DNA of 64,000 nt from Eledone cirrhosa (taxonomy: Eukaryota). The stretch lies in the NCBI GenBank assembly GCA_964016885.1, contig OZ024761.1, forward strand, positions 27,962,001 through 28,026,000, read 5' to 3'. Position numbers and translations under genes: made by a program. Positions 4,785-63,492 of this stretch are shown in pieces; position 1 is the first letter of the stretch; each line of letters begins with the position of its first letter. The notes under the pieces were generated by a model. It made no database searches, had not been told where the DNA came from, and saw only the letters and a list, made by a program, of their open reading frames with translations.

Positions 4785-5127
4785 AGAATAATAATTAAAT
4801 GAAAGTTCATTTCTCACTCTTAGTGCGGCTGTTACTTAAATATAAGTATGTATACGTACATACATAAATGTATACAGACGTACAGTAGTATGTATATATA
4901 TATACATACATGCACACACATATATATATGTACGTATGGCTTTACCGAACATTTATTATAATGTTCGGTTTGTTTGTAAACAAACAGCCCGAATTACGCC
5001 GTACAGTGTTCGGCAACCATCGTCGCCCTTTTGTTCAACACTGACACAGGAACGATGTACTAGTATCAAGCTTATTAGCTATCGTCAGCAACGTATACCT
5101 TTCTGTCAAATGATTGAACGTCTGAAT
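4785..5127 (-). mobile_element. HHR-bearing short element, family B (copy 1)
   Basis: Homologous to 42168-42550 and 48962-49490, with a fragment at 33968-34010. TA-flanked. Confidence 0.75.
5053..5093 (-). ncRNA. Minimal type I hammerhead, probably inactivated (GAAA>GATA)
   Basis: Minus strand: cgttg CTGACGA t agct aata agct t GATA ctag TA catcg. Confidence 0.55.
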
Positions 5128-5139
5128 ATATATATATAT

Positions 5140-6300: not shown

Positions 6301-6836
6301 TAACAACAACAAACAACACTGACTTAAGAGAACTATAAATAAATTTAATAAATAAATAAATAAATACATACACAAGCACAATAACAACAAACACATAAAT
6401 ACACACTAGTAAACTAAGATAGAATACATTAACCAATACACAGTCACCCAAACAAGAATACACATCAAACAAAGCACTATACACACACGCAAATGCATGC
6501 GCAGAGAAGACCAAAAAATGAACAAATAAATAAATAAATAAACAAACTATATAAAGATGGCGTAGACATACAATGCAACGGGAGGAAACATAATGGCGCC
6601 ACTGACGATGTTGCAGATGTGCGGTGAGGGAACTTTGATAGACTATATATATGTGTTTGTGACTATATTGTATCTGTATTTTTGACCGTTGGTCAGTCAA
6701 TGGTAACATTGAGGACCGAATAAATTAAATTAACCGATATAAAAGACACAGAAGCGAAAACCAACCAAACAGTGAGTGTGTTCTGTTATTAATTCTGGCA
6801 ATATTACACTAATATGACCCTCCCCAAGTATAACAA
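6300..6836 (+). mobile_element. 3' UTR/pLTR of the GIY-YIG Penelope-like element (family C)
   Basis: 6556-6836 is homologous to 41638-41890. CTGACGA at 6602-6608 is followed by a short hairpin. Ends in a TA-rich tract. Confidence 0.7.
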
Positions 6837-6875
6837 TATATGTATACATATATATATATATTGTATATATGAATG

Positions 6876-6906
<31 letters not shown>

Positions 6907-6961
6907 TTATACATATATCTATATATATATTGTATATATGAATGTATATATGAATGTATAT

Positions 6962-7489
6962 ATGATGTGGTTGAGAGGAAGAGCAAAGCCTGGGCGGCGT
7001 GCCACAGCTTGAGATCGGTGTGGAAATCGGACCTTCGTAGAGACCTGAAAGTCCGCCTCTTCATTGCTGTAGTGGAGTCTGTGCTGCTGTACGAGTCTGA
7101 GACTTGGACACTGACCAAGAAACTCACTCAGATGGTGGATGGGTGCTACACGAGAATGCTGAGGATGGCTCTGAACATTAATCAGTATAAACTGAGGATG
7201 AAAAAATCAGAGCTGTATGGGAGCATCCCAAAAGTCAGCTCAAAAGTGACACAGCGGAGACTGAGGTTAGCTGGACATGCTCACTGACATCCAGAGTTGA
7301 CATTGCACTCAGTGCTCCTTTGCGAGCCCCTACATGGACACACTAGAAGAGGAAGACCAAGGTTAACGTATGTTGATGCCCTAAGGACAGACACTGGTCT
7401 GTTGGAGACGCAGGACATGGCAGCGATAATGAGGGACAGAGACCGCTGGAGAGAACTCGTCCATGGATCTCGGGAATTTTACCCGCCTT

Positions 7490-48689: not shown

Positions 48690-48898
48690 GTTAATTTTTC
48701 ATTCGCACCGTTTCCTTTCGCTATATGTCTCTCCACCACTCCCCTACACACCTTTTGAACTCTGTTCCCACACACTTCTCACCTGAAGAAGGGCTTATGC
48801 CCGAAACGTCGTCCCCCACCTACCCCCCACTCTCCTGAGCGTGAATTTAATAAACATTTATTGTACTGCCTCTCTGTTCTGTCCCTGTTCAATTTTTC

Positions 48899-48900
<2 letters not shown>
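48690..48900 (+). mobile_element. Penelope-like pLTR fragment (family H) with hammerhead core and AATAAA
   Basis: CTGAAGA a gggc ttat gccc GAAA cgtcg TC at 48783-48813; AATAAA at 48849-54; TA flanks. Helix I is not evident. Confidence 0.65.
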
Positions 48901-48944
<44 letters not shown>

Positions 48945-48961
48945 AATATATATATATATAT

Positions 48962-49490
48962 GTGAAATAGAAAGAAACGAAATTTCATTTCCCACTCTTA
49001 GTACGGCTGTTACTTAAATGTATGTATGTATACGTACATACATATATGTATACAGACGTACAGTAGTATGTATATATATACATACATGCACACATATATA
49101 TATGTACGTATGGATTTACCGAGCATTTATTATAATGCTCGATTTGTTTGTAACCTGTACGTCTGTATACATATATGTATCTACGTATACATACTTACAT
49201 TTAAGTAACTGCGTACTAAGAGTGAGAAATGAAATTTCGTTTCATTCTATTCCATTTATCGTTTTCGGTGCGCCCGGCCGACTAAACTCACTCGATATGC
49301 AAATGAGGCTGCTCAGCTGTTAATATGCATAAGGAAAGTATATACTTTCAGACGTTCAACCATCTGGCAGGAAGGTATACGATGCTGACGATAGCTAATA
49401 AGCTTGAAACGAGTACATCATTTCTGTGTCAGTGTTGATGAAAAAGGTGGTGTGGTTGCCTAAACACTGTACGGCGTAATTCGGGCTGTT
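48962..49490. mobile_element. Family B composite: inverted 3' part (48962-49150), then 3' end-linker-5' part on + (49155-49490)
   Basis: Comparison with 42168-42550. Confidence 0.8.
49380..49420 (+). ncRNA. Minimal type I hammerhead ribozyme, intact core
   Basis: cgatg CTGACGA(49385-91) t agct aata agct t GAAA(49406-09) cgag TA catca. Confidence 0.75.
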
Positions 49491-49521
<31 letters not shown>

Positions 49522-49695: not shown

Positions 49696-49769
<74 letters not shown>

Positions 49770-49818
49770 TAAACAAATAATGAATAAACAATTTCTTATA
49801 TTAAACAAAAAAAGTTCA

Positions 49819-49965
49819 TTATTTAACGATCGTTTCTAGGATATATATGTGTTAGAATTGGTATGCATATTCAACAGATCTATGTACAAAATTATACAAA
49901 ATTATACAAATTATCAAGATTAAATATACATACCAAACACATATATACGCCGTCTTCAGAAATAA
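49819..49965 (-). ncRNA. Hammerhead with giant helix II (mirror copy)
   Basis: Reverse complement of 49967-50113. Confidence 0.6.
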
Positions 49966-49966
49966 A

Positions 49967-50113
49967 TTATTTCTGAAGACGGCGTATATATGTGTTTGGT
50001 ATGTATATTTAATCTTGATAATTTGTATAATTTTGTATAATTTTGTACATAGATCTGTTGAATATGCATACCAATTCTAACACATATATATCCTAGAAAC
50101 GATCGTTAAATAA
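49967..50113 (+). ncRNA. Type I hammerhead with ~116-nt helix II region
   Basis: ttattt CTGAAGA(49973-79) ... tatatatgtgtt/aacacatatata and tggtatgtatatt/aatatgcatacca stems ... GAAA(50096-99) cgatcg TT aaataa. Confidence 0.65.
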
Positions 50114-50303
50114 TGAACTTTTTTTGTTTAATATAAGAAATTGTTTATTCATTATTTGTTTAATATTTTATCTTGTACTCTGTATACCGTTTATCTTTCA
50201 CCGAAAGTGGTTTTTCATTACATCTCTTCTTTCCATGATATCCGGAATACATTGAGTTCTTCATACGGATTGGACACTACCGTAAACTCTTGGTAGATTT
50301 ATC

Positions 50304-54500: not shown

Positions 54501-54763
54501 ATAGATATATGTATATGTGTATATATATATATGCATATATATATGTGTATATATATTTGTATTTATATCTATATATATATATATATATATATATACTCAC
54601 CTGCATACGTGTGTGTATGTATATATATACATATATATGTGAGTGATACAATAATTATTTCGGTGGGCCTTGTAATATAATTATTTATTTAATTTTTCAA
54701 AATCGACACAAAGTAATCGATCTTCGTTGTGTGAAAGACGACAATATGATACAGCGGGGAGAA

Positions 54764-57700
54764 ACAACAACAACAACAACAACTCCATTACTACTACTAC
54801 TACTAACAACAACAACTCCATTACTACTACTACTAACAACAACAACTCCATTACTACTACTACTACTAACAACAACAACTCCATTACTACTACTACTAAA
54901 AACAACGACTCCATTACTACTACTACTACTAACAACAACAACTCCATTACTACTACTACTAACAACAACAACTCCATTACTACTACTACTATTAACAACA
55001 ACTCCATTACTACTACTACTATTAACAACAACAACTCCATTACTACTACTACTAACAACAACAACTCCATTACTACTACTACTACTAACAACAACAACTC
55101 CATTACTACTACTACTAACAACAACAACTCCATTACTACTACTACTAACAACAACAACTCCATTACTACTACTACTATTAACAACAACAACTCCATTACT
55201 ACTACTACTACTAACAACAACAACTCCATTACTACTACTACTAACAACAACAACTCCATTACTACTACTACTACTAACAACAACAACTCCATTACAACTA
55301 CTACTAACAACAACATCTCCATTACTACTACTACTAACAACAACGACTCCATTACTACTACTGCTACTAACAACAACAACTCCATTACTACTACTACTAA
55401 CAACAACAACTCCATTACTACTACTACTATTAACAACAACAACTCCATTACTACTACTACTAACAACAACAACTCCATTACTACTACTACTACTAACAAC
55501 AACAACTCCATTACTACTACTACTAACAACAACAACTCCATTACTACTACTACTACTAACAACAACAACTCCATTACAACTACTACTAACAACAACATCT
55601 CCATTACTACTACTACTACTACTAACAACAACGACTCCATTACTACTACTGCTACTAACAAAAACAACTCCATTACTACTACTACTAACAACAACAACTC
55701 CATTACTACTACTACTAACAACAACAACTCCATTACTACTACTACTACTAACAACAACAACTCCATTACAACTACTACTAACAACAACATCTCCATTACT
55801 ACTACTACTAACAACAACGACTCCATTACTACTACTGCTACTAACAACAACAACTCCATTACTACTACTACTAACAACAACGACTCCATTACTACTACTA
55901 CTACTAACAACAACAACTCCATTACTACTACTACTAACAACAACAACTCCATTACTACTACTACTAACAACAACAACTCCATTACTACTACTACTACTAA
56001 CAACAACAACTCCATTACTACTACTACTAACAACAACAACTCCATTACTACTACTACTACTAACAACAACAACTCCATTACTACTACTACTACTAACAAC
56101 AACAACTCCATTACTACTACTACTAACAACAACGACCCCATTACTACTACTACTATTAACAACAACAACTCCATTACTACTACTACTAACAACAACAACT
56201 CCATTACTACTACTACTACTAACAACAACAACTCCATTACTACTACTACTAACAACAACAACTCCATTACTACTACTACTACTAACAACAACAACTCCAT
56301 TACTACTACTACTAACAACAACAACTCCATTACTACTACTACTACTAACAACAACAACTCCATTACTACTACTACTAACAACAACGACTCCATTACTACT
56401 ACTACTACTAACAACAACAACTCCATTACTACTACTACTAACAACAACAACTCCATTACTACTACTACTAACAACAACAACTCCATTACTACTACTACTA
56501 CTAACAACAACAACTCCATTACTACTACTACTAAAAACAACGACTCCATTACTACTACTACTACTAACAACAACAACTCCATTACTACTACTACTAACAA
56601 CAACAACTCCATTACTACTACTACTATTAACAACAACTCCATTACTACTACTACTATTAACAACAACAACTCCATTACTACTACTACTAACAACAACAAC
56701 TCCATTACTACTACTACTACTAACAACAACAACTCCATTACTACTACTACTAACAACAACAACTCCATTACTACTACTACTAACAACAACAACTCCATTA
56801 CTACTACTACTATTAACAACAACAACTCCATTACTACTACTACTACTAACAACAACAACTCCATTACTACTACTACTAACAACAACAACTCCATTACTAC
56901 TACTACTACTAACAACAACAACTCCATTACAACTACTACTAACAACAACATCTCCATTACTACTACTACTAACAACAACGACTCCATTACTACTACTGCT
57001 ACTAACAACAACAACTCCATTACTACTACTACTAACAACAACAACTCCATTACTACTACTACTATTAACAACAACAACTCCATTACTACTACTACTAACA
57101 ACAACAACTCCATTACTACTACTACTACTAACAACAACAACTCCATTACTACTACTACTAACAACAACAACTCCATTACTACTACTACTACTAACAACAA
57201 CAACTCCATTACAACTACTACTAACAACAACATCTCCATTACTACTACTACTACTACTAACAACAACGACTCCATTACTACTACTGCTACTAACAAAAAC
57301 AACTCCATTACTACTACTACTAACAACAACAACTCCATTACTACTACTACTAACAACAACAACTCCATTACTACTACTACTACTAACAACAACAACTCCA
57401 TTACAACTACTACTAACAACAACATCTCCATTACTACTACTACTAACAACAACGACTCCATTACTACTACTGCTACTAACAACAACAACTCCATTACTAC
57501 TACTACTAACAACAACGACTCCATTACTACTACTACTACTAACAACAACAACTCCATTACTACTACTACTAACAACAACAACTCCATTACTACTACTACT
57601 AACAACAACAACTCCATTACTACTACTACTACTAACAACAACAACTCCATTACTACTACTACTAACAACAACAACTCCATTACTACTACTACTACTAACA

Positions 57701-60700
57701 ACAACAACTCCATTACTACTACTACTACTAACAACAACAACTCCATTACTACTACTACTAACAACAACGACCCCATTACTACTACTACTATTAACAACAA
57801 CAACTCCATTACTACTACTACTAACAACAACAACTCCATTACTACTACTACTACTAACAACAACAACTCCATTACTACTACTACTAACAACAACAACTCC
57901 ATTACTACTACTACTAACAACAACAACTCCATTACTACTACTACTATTAACAACAACAACTCCATTACTACTACTACTACTAACAACAACAACTCCATTA
58001 CTACTACTACTAACAACAACAACTCCATTACTACTACTACTACTAACAACAACAACTCCATTACAACTACTACTAACAACAACATCTCCATTACTACTAC
58101 TACTAACAACAACGACTCCATTACTACTACTGCTACTAACAACAACAACTCCATTACTACTACTACTAACAACAACAACTCCATTACTACTACTACTATT
58201 AACAACAACAACTCCATTACTACTACTACTAACAACAACAACTCCATTACTACTACTACTACTAACAACAACAACTCCATTACTACTACTACTAACAACA
58301 ACAACTCCATTACTACTACTACTACTAACAACAACAACTCCATTACAACTACTACTAACAACAACATCTCCATTACTACTACTACTACTACTAACAACAA
58401 CGACTCCATTACTACTACTGCTACTAACAAAAACAACTCCATTACTACTACTACTAACAACAACAACTCCATTACTACTACTACTAACAACAACAACTCC
58501 ATTACTACTACTACTACTAACAACAACAACTCCATTACAACTACTACTAACAACAACATCTCCATTACTACTACTACTAACAACAACGACTCCATTACTA
58601 CTACTGCTACTAACAACAACAACTCCATTACTACTACTACTAACAACAACGACTCCATTACTACTACTACTACTAACAACAACAACTCCATTACTACTAC
58701 TACTAACAACAACAACTCCATTACTACTACTACTAACAACAACAACTCCATTACTACTACTACTACTAACAACAACAACTCCATTACTACTACTACTAAC
58801 AACAACAACTCCATTACTACTACTACTACTAACAACAACAACTCCATTACTACTACTACTACTAACAACAACAACTCCATTACTACTACTACTAACAACA
58901 ACGACCCCATTACTACTACTACTATTAACAACAACAACTCCATTACTACTACTACTAACAACAACAACTCCATTACTACTACTACTACTAACAACAACAA
59001 CTCCATTACTACTACTACTAACAACAACAACTCCATTACTACTACTACTACTAACAACAACAACTCCATTACTACTACTACTAACAACAACAACTCCATT
59101 ACTACTACTACTACTAACAACAACAACTCCATTACTACTACTACTAACAACAACGACTCCATTACTACTACTACTACTAACAACAACAACTCCATTACTA
59201 CTACTACTAACAACAACAACTCCATTACTACTACTACTAACAACAACAACTCCATTACTACTACTACTACTAACAACAACAACTCCATTACTACTACTAC
59301 TAAAAACAACGACTCCATTACTACTACTACTACTAACAACAACAACTCCATTACTACTACTACTAACAACAACAACTCCATTACTACTACTACTATTAAC
59401 AACAACTCCATTACTACTACTACTATTAACAACAACAACTCCATTACTACTACTACTAACAACAACAACTCCATTACTACTACTACTACTAACAACAACA
59501 ACTCCATTACTACTACTACTAACAACAACAACTCCATTACTACTACTACTAACAACAACAACTCCATTACTACTACTACTATTAACAACAACAACTCCAT
59601 TACTACTACTACTACTAACAACAACAACTCCATTACTACTACTACTAACAACAACAACTCCATTACTACTACTACTACTAACAACAACAACTCCATTACA
59701 ACTACTACTAACAACAACATCTCCATTACTACTACTACTAACAACAACGACTCCATTACTACTACTGCTACTAACAACAACAACTCCATTACTACTACTA
59801 CTAACAACAACAACTCCATTACTACTACTACTATTAACAACAACAACTCCATTACTACTACTACTAACAACAACAACTCCATTACTACTACTACTACTAA
59901 CAACAACAACTCCATTACTACTACTACTAACAACAACAACTCCATTACTACTACTACTACTAACAACAACAACTCCATTACAACTACTACTAACAACAAC
60001 ATCTCCATTACTACTACTACTACTACTAACAACAACGACTCCATTACTACTACTGCTACTAACAAAAACAACTCCATTACTACTACTACTAACAACAACA
60101 ACTCCATTACTACTACTACTAACAACAACAACTCCATTACTACTACTACTACTAACAACAACAACTCCATTACAACTACTACTAACAACAACATCTCCAT
60201 TACTACTACTACTAACAACAACGACTCCATTACTACTACTGCTACTAACAACAACAACTCCATTACTACTACTACTAACAACAACGACTCCATTACTACT
60301 ACTACTACTAACAACAACAACTCCATTACTACTACTACTAACAACAACAACTCCATTACTACTACTACTAACAACAACAACTCCATTACTACTACTACTA
60401 CTAACAACAACAACTCCATTACTACTACTACTAACAACAACAACTCCATTACTACTACTACTACTAACAACAACAACTCCATTACTACTACTACTACTAA
60501 CAACAACAACTCCATTACTACTACTACTAACAACAACGACCCCATTACTACTACTACTATTAACAACAACAACTCCATTACTACTACTACTAACAACAAC
60601 AACTCCATTACTACTACTACTACTAACAACAACAACTCCATTACTACTACTACTAACAACAACAACTCCATTACTACTACTACTACTAACAACAACAACT

Positions 60701-63292
60701 CCATTACTACTACTACTAACAACAACAACTCCATTACTACTACTACTACTAACAACAACAACTCCATTACTACTACTACTAACAACAACGACTCCATTAC
60801 TACTACTACTACTAACAACAACAACTCCATTACTACTACTACTAACAACAACAACTCCATTACTACTACTACTAACAACAACAACTCCATTACTACTACT
60901 ACTACTAACAACAACAACTCCATTACTACTACTACTAACAACAACAACTCCATTACTACTACTACTACTAACAACAACAACTCCATTACTACTACTACTA
61001 CTAACAACAACAACTCCATTACTACTACTACTAACAACAACAACTCCATTACTACTACTACTACTAACAACAACAACTCCATTACTACTACTACTACTAA
61101 CAACAACAACTCCATTACTACTACTACTAACAACAACGACCCCATTACTACTACTACTACTAACAACAACAACTCCATTACTACTACTACTAACAACAAC
61201 AACTCCATTACTACTACTACTACTAACAACAACAACTCCATTACTACTACTACTAACAACAACAACTCCATTACTACTACTACTATTAACAACAACAACT
61301 CCATTACTACTACTACTAAAAACAACGACTCCATTACTACTACTACTACTAACAACAACAACTCCATTACTACTACTACTAACAACAACAACTCCATTAC
61401 TACTACTACTATTAACAACAACAACTCCATTACTACTACTACTAACAACAACAACTCCATTACTACTACTACTACTAACAACAACAACTCCATTACTACA
61501 ACTACTAACAACAACAACTCCATTACTACTACTACTACTAACAACAACAACTCCATTACAACTACTACTAACAACAACATCTCCATTACTACTACTACTA
61601 ACAACAACGACTCCATTACTACTACTGCTACTAACAAAAACAACCCCATTACTACTACTACTAACAACAACAACTCCATTACTACTACTACTACTAACAA
61701 CAACAACTCCATTACTACTACTACTAACAACAACAACTCCATTACTACTACTACTACTAACAACAACAACTCCATTACTACTACTACTAACAACAACGAC
61801 TCCATTACTACTACTACTACTAACAACAACAACTCCATTACTACTACTACTAACAACAACAACTCCATTACTACTACTACTAACAACAACAACTCCATTA
61901 CTACTACTACTACTAACAACAACAACTCCATTACTACTACTACTACTAACAACAACAACTCCATTACTACTACTACTAACAACAACAACTCCATTACTAC
62001 TACTACTACTAACAACACCAACTCCATTACTACTACTACTACTAACAACAACAACTCCATTACTACTACTACTACTAACAACAACAACTCCATTACTACT
62101 ACTACTAACAACAACAACTCCATTACTACTACTACTAACAACAACGACTCCATTACTACTACTACTACTAACAACAACAACTCCATTACTACTACTACTA
62201 ACAACAACAACTCCATTACTACTACTACTACTACTAACAACAACAACTCCATTACTACTACTACTAACAACAACAACTCCATTACTACTACTACTAACAA
62301 CAACAACTCCATTACTACTACTACTAACAACAATGACTCCATTACTACTACTACTACTACTAACAACAACAACTCCATTACTACTACTACTACTAACAAC
62401 AACAACTCCATTACTACTACTACTAACAACAACAACTCCATTACTACTACTACTAACAACAACGACTCCATTACTACTACTACTACTACTAACAACAACA
62501 ACTCCATTACTACTACTACTAACAACAACAACTCCATTACTACTACTACTAACAACAACAACTCCATTACTACTACTACTACTAACAACAACAACTCCAT
62601 TACTACTACTACTAACAACAACAACTCCATTACTACTACTACTACTAACAACAACAACTCCATTACTACTACTACTACTAACAACAACAACTCCATTACT
62701 ACTACTACTAACAACAACGACTCCATTACTACTACTACTACTAACAACAACAACTCCATTACTACTACTACTAACAACAACAACTCCATTACTACTACTA
62801 CTAACAACAACACCTCCATTACTACTACTACTACTAACAACAACGACTCCATTACTACTACTACTACTAAAAACGACTCCATTACTACTACTACTAACAA
62901 CAACAACTCCATTACTACTACTACTAACAACAACACCTCCATTACTACTACTACTAACAACAACGACTCCATTACTACTACTACTACTACTAACGACGAC
63001 TCCATTACTACTACTACTAACATCAACGACTCCATTACTACTACTACTACTGCTACTACTACTAACAACAATACCTCCATTACTACTACTACTAACAACA
63101 ACGACTCCATTACTACTACTACTACTACTAACGACGACTCCATTACTACTACTACTAACATCAACGACTCCATTACTACTACTACTACTGCTACTACTAC
63201 TAACAACAATACCTCCATTACTACTACTACTAACAACAACGACTCCATTACTACTACTACTAACAACAACGACTCCATTACTACTACTACTA
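54764..63292. repeat. Satellite of 30/33-bp units TCC ATT (ACT)4-6 (AAC)3-4 with 1635-bp higher-order repeat
   Basis: Rare AAC>AAA variants at 55660, 57295, 58429 and 60064 (spacings 1635, 1134, 1635); the gacccc variant shows the same spacings. Confidence 0.95.
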
Positions 63293-63492
63293 NNNNNNNN
63301 NNNNNNNNNNNNNNNNNNNNNNNNNNNNNNNNNNNNNNNNNNNNNNNNNNNNNNNNNNNNNNNNNNNNNNNNNNNNNNNNNNNNNNNNNNNNNNNNNNNN
63401 NNNNNNNNNNNNNNNNNNNNNNNNNNNNNNNNNNNNNNNNNNNNNNNNNNNNNNNNNNNNNNNNNNNNNNNNNNNNNNNNNNNNNNNNNNNN
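63293..63492. other. Assembly gap (200 N)
   Basis: Run of N. Confidence 1.

Follow-up and report, generated by a model that had tools for sequence, protein, structure and literature searches.

A 442-nt hammerhead-bearing repeat of Eledone cirrhosa with insertion ends like those of Penelope-like elements

The locus and its repeat unit

In a window of 64,000 nucleotides from Eledone cirrhosa (the whole stretch of DNA analysed here, positions 27,962,001 to 28,026,000 of contig OZ024761.1), two parts of a repeat are joined head to tail beside a hammerhead motif, and the question raised by this locus is whether such a junction reflects a small circular or tandem RNA of about 440 nt, as in the original prediction. 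Masked self-BLAST of the window matched 49155-49256 with 42275-42169 (91.6%) and 49319-49490 with 42550-42379 (95.3%), while the 61 nt between them (49258-49318), previously read as a linker, have no second match within the window. A stretch of 131 nt across the junction (49215-49345) was matched over its full length, at 98-100%, at all 40 places scored of 2,301 candidates, the locus itself being one of the 40. The junction is real and recurs elsewhere: it is the normal interior sequence of a 442-nt unit, here called family B, and a permuted copy by itself is no demonstration of a circle.

The predicted unit of about 440 nt is borne out by the spacing from hammerhead to hammerhead, which is 442 nt in L023, 440 nt in L025 and 447 nt in L030. 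Tandems reach 3.45 units, and the unit has no ORF, its longest stop-free frame being 50 aa in sense and 95 aa in antisense. Family B is thus a non-coding, tandem, hammerhead-bearing repeat, as had been proposed. Of the two ends assigned to the copy at 42168, the 3' end 'ccattt' stands (39 of 103 ends lie at u286), but 'gttaatatgcat' is no element start; it marks the point at which that copy is 5'-truncated, and the 5' ends of other copies are spread round the unit. Missing from the original description was a second arm, since 48963-49151 matches 42171-42365 on the same strand and is an inverted copy of the 3' half of the element. The locus therefore reads (TA)n, inverted arm, direct arm, (TA)n, with the two arms head-to-head (Table 1); its direct arm passes through the long end site, the promoter-like block and the hammerhead before it stops at a minor site (GTTT/ATAT).

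Table 1. Family B features in the window (window coordinates; u1 is the base after the predicted GUA cut)
Feature	Position	Strand	Basis or content
(TA)n target, left half	48902..48962	.	sequence; TA run after 82/103 arm 3' ends
Inverted arm, u83 to u281 (0.45 unit), ending at distal 'long' site	48963..49153	-	self-BLAST, arm mapping
Direct arm, about u173/177 to u76 (0.77 unit)	49155..49491	+	self-BLAST, arm mapping
Proximal 'short' end site (u~219-229)	49196..49203	+	36/103 3' ends at u205-240
'Tail' between the two end sites	49204..49259	+	49/103 3' ends at u270-300
61-nt stretch first read as a 'linker'	49258..49318	+	ordinary unit sequence; T4 run (49262-49265) and octamer box
Likely U6-type promoter block	49296..49344	+	TATGCAAAT(G/T)AG; octamer 49297-49304, TATATA 49339-49344
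Type I hammerhead motif, decayed	49365..49432	+	CUGACGA 49385; predicted cut after GUA 49415
(TA)n target, right half	49492..49521	.	sequence
Second family B copy, single arm u344 to u286, ending in (TA)n	42166..42552	-	
Third, older family B copy, u366 to about u273	4793..5134	-	

Arms were mapped in 145 sequences (L001-L150 less six duplicates, plus the window), HSPs below 70 bits or 76% identity being dropped. The resulting set holds 106 arms in 67 loci and 78 insertions, three edge arms being left out of the end counts (103); most of the loci were picked by similarity to the locus, so that arm length and cut-site crossing are biased in this set. A random sample of forty 10-kb stretches at round coordinates (400 kb, 28 of the stretches on the four largest contigs) contained nine insertions and 5,571 bases of family B, or 1.4% of the sampled DNA, and extrapolation from these nine gives some 67,000 insertions in the genome (95% range 31,000-128,000). 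Copies in this sample are 77-89% identical to the L023 monomer and the youngest ones deviate from the column majority by 0.3-1%, which argues for activity that is both long-lasting and recent.

In the hammerhead, stem I has 6 bp and continues beyond a bulge, stem II has 4 bp above a U-U mismatch, and the sequence of stem III is a palindrome, which in principle permits dimeric cleavage. Core columns are 0.94-1.0 conserved and stems I-III pair, the stem I pair 409:3 being AT in 70, GT in 14 and TG in 8 cases. Conservation in 20 older arms is 0.97 in the core, 0.99 in the octamer and 0.96 in the tail hairpin, with 0.89 for the unit overall. The Rfam model Hammerhead_HH9 aligns over its full length to a young copy (L005) with 17.6 bits (E 0.038), below its gathering threshold of 52; in the whole-window Rfam search, the 150 matches listed of 494 were all sub-threshold and nearly all came from microRNA models on microsatellites. 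We consider it likely that family B hammerheads cleave themselves. The fold energy of the unit (z=-7.5, 60 shuffles) was rejected as a sign of a circle, since part of it is due to a palindrome rich in TA and the fold of the antisense strand is nearly as stable.

The hammerhead of the locus itself has substitutions in stem I and has lost the stem III palindrome (dimer energy -2.0 versus -6.8). At least two consecutive hammerheads occur only at other loci, and 10 of the 106 arms span at least two cut sites. With its single, altered hammerhead the locus could not release a monomer alone; it is an ordinary decayed copy and a two-armed product.

The surroundings of the locus hold other repeats. Adjoining its left (TA)n, 48763-48900 (+) resembles part of a pLTR, in which AATAAA comes after a hammerhead motif of another kind (CUGAAGA at 48783). 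An almost perfect palindrome of some 400 nt (~49765-50170, centre near 49966) has CTGAAGA on both sides of the centre and (TA)n at its left, and may be a second two-armed insertion with arms truncated at the hammerhead. Other families contribute more hammerhead motifs (CUGAUGA...GAAAUAUAUA type) at 1608(-)/1779(+), 11688(-), 41068(+), 53811(-)/53905(+) and 26861(+), and two of these sets are head-to-head pairs, like family B. The window also contains a frameshifted LINE-type RT frame at 37263-39223 (+) and RTE-like RT fragments at 6793-7287 (+) and 41130-41732 (-), all named from their translations, and a CTA/CAA-rich minisatellite of ~8.6 kb (54690-63300) that ends at an assembly gap.

Insertion ends and Penelope-like elements

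The 3' ends of family B arms concentrate at two sites about 60 nt apart, with 36 of 103 at u205-240 and 49 of 103 at u270-300. Hence 85 of 103 3' ends fall within 15% of the unit (p=7e-52), versus 14 of 103 5' ends in the same windows, and the random sample, which was not chosen by similarity, agrees, with nine of 12 arms ending at these two sites. The proximal short site is the 3' foot of a long TA/CA-rich hairpin and is read through in the direct arm of the locus; the tail beyond it, 57-67 nt in length, comprises a hairpin of 18 nt (49226-49243) and, at CCATTT/AT (49252-49259), the distal long site. A TA run follows 82 of 103 3' ends, versus 25 5' ends preceded by one, and the end sites have TA in common with the (TA)n target.

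Of the 78 insertions, 28 consist of two arms that meet at their 5' ends, in most cases with a slight overlap or gap at the join. In 18 of them both ends lie at main sites, and 17 of these combine one long with one short end, one has two short ends and none has two long ends (p=7e-5); each of the remaining 10, the locus included, has one end at a minor site.

The same asymmetry is found in the coding Penelope-like elements (PLEs) of this genome, for which 70 loci were fetched; the genome has at least 150 GIY-YIG matches (10,596 candidates). Coding elements with RT and GIY-YIG (L136, L140, L148) are two-armed in (TA)n, with long and short ends ~66 nt apart, and a second coding PLE family (L143) has the same two-armed asymmetry with ends ~55 nt apart. 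Since family B insertions bear this end signature, a Penelope-type protein acting in trans very likely copied family B. In the PLE family with the 938-codon open frame (L131, L136, L140, L142, L148), CAGAAGA replaces CUGANGA in a hammerhead-like motif in every copy printed.

The original prediction came with an alternative, in which a coding PLE has family B as its pLTR and the copies are 5'-truncated pLTRs in tandem. Such an origin would account for an insertion footprint identical to that of coding PLEs, and a relation between retrozymes and pLTRs is described for Xenopus (bioRxiv 10.64898/2026.07.22.740005). However, upstream of the family B end sites the 442-nt repeat continues, for as many as 3.45 units, and no ORF is met. 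None of the 106 arms has a same-strand ORF match within 300 nt upstream; within 1,300 nt there are matches for seven, the nearest at 362 nt, and in the one PLE case inspected (L142) the PLE's own pLTR and a (TA)n tract separate it from the family B arm. Among the 70 GIY-YIG loci (150 scored of the 10,596 candidates) there is no pLTR homologous to family B, a result that also counts against a PLE-copied circle, and the family B matches near PLE loci are separate family B insertions, TA-hairpin noise or, in L160, a sister repeat. Family B is thus not attached to a PLE ORF, and the pLTR reading, largely refuted for the present copies, is the least probable of those considered here, though the family may have had an extinct coding ancestor.

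It is also conceivable that family B is a DNA-level repeat (a satellite, MITE or Helitron-like sequence) spread by duplication or fold-back repair, in which the hammerhead would be incidental. Strong hairpins are consistent with this, as are some private variants common to the junction-proximal parts of both arms and the fact that, beyond the long hairpin, A>G changes are not in excess (68 vs 59, p=0.59). However, family B matches the coding PLEs in its 3' ends, which are fixed while its 5' ends are scattered, in its (TA)n targets and in its long/short asymmetry, and the two arms of an insertion start at different unit positions, so that they are not simple fold-backs; we regard spread at the DNA level as very unlikely. 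Scars of A-to-I editing were sought in the same variants and set aside as weak: A>G changes per insertion in the long hairpin number 79 vs 52 (p=0.007, with ambiguous alignment there), the raw excess includes inherited subfamily variants, and variants found in three or fewer insertions give 41 vs 35.

The copied template and its transcription

Arms range from 0.1 to 3.45 units, 51 of 106 being longer than one unit and seven longer than two, and in the random sample 10 of 12 cross the predicted cut site. Only one 3' end and two 5' ends of the 103 lie within 10 nt of that cut. The ends avoid the ribozyme cut, with no pile-up there, which excludes a linear, hammerhead-cut monomer as the template.

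We favour, with moderate confidence, the reading in which family B is a non-LTR retrozyme copied in trans by a PLE protein, probably from self-cut circular RNA; the circular template, taken separately, we are somewhat inclined to accept. A source locus with at least two hammerheads would be transcribed, likely from the internal U6-like block, with read-through of the T4 run. The hammerheads, probably as dimers through their palindromic stem III, would excise the 442-nt monomer, which is predicted to be ligated into a circle. The PLE protein would then cut both strands of a (TA)n tract and prime reverse transcription on each strand at a different one of two internal sites, which lie ~60 nt from each other, a step suggested by the family B ends together with the priming described in PMC11167929. 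The products themselves are visible as genomic structure: arms of 0.1 to 3.45 units extend across the cut site and are joined 5' to 5', or a single arm is joined to host DNA.

The same PLE-mobilised non-coding element could instead be copied from a long uncut transcript, multimeric or read-through, with a slow or late hammerhead and no circle. According to PMC11167929, an anole PLE mainly used uncut RNA as substrate in vitro and its own hammerhead was dispensable, which would also fit a linear template and counts against a circle. The coding PLE with an open frame of 938 codons (L131) likewise spans its own hammerhead, and only one of nine Xenopus retrozyme dimers was cleaved in vitro as described in bioRxiv 10.64898/2026.07.22.740005. 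Against an uncut transcript, 5' ends accumulate neither at a start site nor at the cut, copies of the unit include the promoter block located upstream of its predicted start, and the hammerhead is kept across subfamilies.

Variants within insertions bear on both templates. Successive units in one arm differ by 0.038 versus 0.073 between insertions (39 comparisons, p=3e-6) and have 173 of 255 possible variants in common; the two arms of an insertion differ by 0.043 versus 0.059 (23 pairs, p=0.002) and have 54 of 105 variants in common, versus 13% in controls. Among variants private to one insertion, 17 were seen at least twice in it and 130 once. Whole subfamily variant sets recur in every pass of L141 and L094, against an uncut transcript, whereas in L090, L100 and L025 several variants are present in only some passes of one insertion, in its favour; for a single monomer circle, against which this partial sharing counts, later conversion or template switching would be needed. 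Gene conversion or homogeneous source arrays can also explain the sharing, so that pass-by-pass variants separate neither circle nor multimer. L016, L021 and L006 resemble nests of insertions that differ in age. We consider an uncut transcript a rather unlikely source of the copies.

The octamer/TATA block is a candidate promoter for transcription of the unit. Its box, TATGCAAAT(G/T)AG, is 0.99 conserved in older arms at the octamer. Of 48 U6 loci found in the host, 12 were fetched and five inspected; two of the five have the same box at -76/-77 with a TATA at -30, sharing 12-13 identical bases with the family B box, and the exact octamer is missing in the other three, one having a one-base variant and two no box. 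Octamer-to-TATA spacing is 42 nt in family B versus 46-47 in U6. A start 30 nt after the TATA is predicted near 49366-49369, at the 5' foot of the extended stem I. We lean slightly towards a U6-type promoter function of this block, from its resemblance to the U6 loci. Pol III could terminate at the conserved T4-T5 run that directly follows the long site. A transcript from the predicted start to this run would be without the promoter, yet insertions contain the promoter and show no pile-up at the start; read-through is therefore required, which fits a circle and is no proof of one. The octamer-TATA spacing, the three inspected U6 loci without the exact octamer, the T4-T5 run and the sub-threshold Rfam score all count against the favoured reading.

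Two further observations concern this block. A sister tandem repeat with a 466-nt unit (L160:28-600, -) has the same octamer box, long hairpin and palindromic stem III and keeps the T run after the long site; its stem II is different. A tandem array of more than 30 U6 genes with ~1.8-kb spacing lies at G000:C19:31780605-31840331, and SINE-like sequence takes the place of the upstream box in the two units inspected.

More tentatively, and as a possibility that we rate as doubtful in its full form, family B could be a genome-encoded RNA circle that brings both a U6-type promoter and a start signal for the PLE. One dimeric Penelope protein would load two RTs at two sites and, beginning from the two strands of a (TA)n break, copy the circle round; the partner element would have no sequence in common with family B. 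If so, the insertions would document rolling-circle target-primed reverse transcription over ~1.4% of the genome.

Comparison with retrozymes, Penelope-like elements and satellite 2

Metazoan non-LTR retrozymes are described as tandem units of 150-450 bp with a type I hammerhead and no ORF or LTR (PMC7229834). Family B fits this sequence-level definition as a putative non-LTR retrozyme: it has a type I hammerhead in each unit, a tandem unit within 150-450 bp, no coding capacity and a GC content below 50% (37%), and it shares with the described retrozymes a self-paired fold and coexistence with PLEs. Unlike them as described, most family B copies are dispersed insertions of 0.1-3.5 units, 28 of 78 being two-armed, with fixed internal end sites, (TA)n targets and no homologous pLTR in the 70 GIY-YIG loci. 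In the literature, most subscription journals and supplements aside, we found no description of two-armed retrozyme insertions or of octopus retrozymes.

The route by which animal retrozymes enter new loci has been proposed to be the copying of a circle by a PLE enzyme. We found this demonstrated neither in PMC7229834 nor in bioRxiv 10.64898/2026.07.22.740005, both of which base PLE mobilisation on co-occurrence and on homology to pLTRs, with no use of insertion ends that we found. Family B insertions carry a detailed PLE footprint and name two start sites. With the 938-codon open frame of L131 in the same genome, the copying step is testable in the existing in vitro assay.

Coding PLEs are reported to carry an inverted, 5'-truncated copy and often a tail at one end only (PMC8557442), and their protein to have two internal RT start sites and to cut both strands as a predicted dimer (PMC11167929). 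Family B is like them in its partial tandems, its inverted 5'-truncated copy with the tail at one end, its two putative internal start sites and its AT-rich or (TA)n targets (PMC8557442, PMC11167929), and the cutting of both strands (PMC11167929) is a probable further likeness. The rule of one long and one short end, seen in coding and non-coding elements alike, would explain the PLE 'tail at one end', because the two strands would be primed at two sites. Family B differs in having no RT/GIY-YIG ORF, in its tail of 57-67 nt versus 30-40 in the coding PLEs of those two sources, and in its hammerhead with an extended, bulged stem I; moreover, the anole element is described as starting without target homology (PMC11167929), whereas family B end sites match the TA of the target.

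Closer in content are the non-autonomous PLEs of Chlamys such as MRC1, which are non-coding, form pLTRs and have multicopy head-to-tail insertions attributed to PLEs (PMC8557442); family B is also non-coding, multicopy and head-to-tail. Those elements generally resemble their autonomous partner at the 3' end, whereas no homology to a partner was detected for family B, and most Chlamys PLEs are described as having no hammerhead, which family B has (PMC8557442). Finally, newt satellite 2 (Coats et al. 1994, as cited in PMC2220036) is a hammerhead tandem repeat with an internal snRNA-type promoter, which the citing paper assigns to Pol II. Family B resembles it as a hammerhead tandem repeat with an internal snRNA-type promoter-like block, and differs in that its block resembles, by octamer and TATA, the host U6 promoter.
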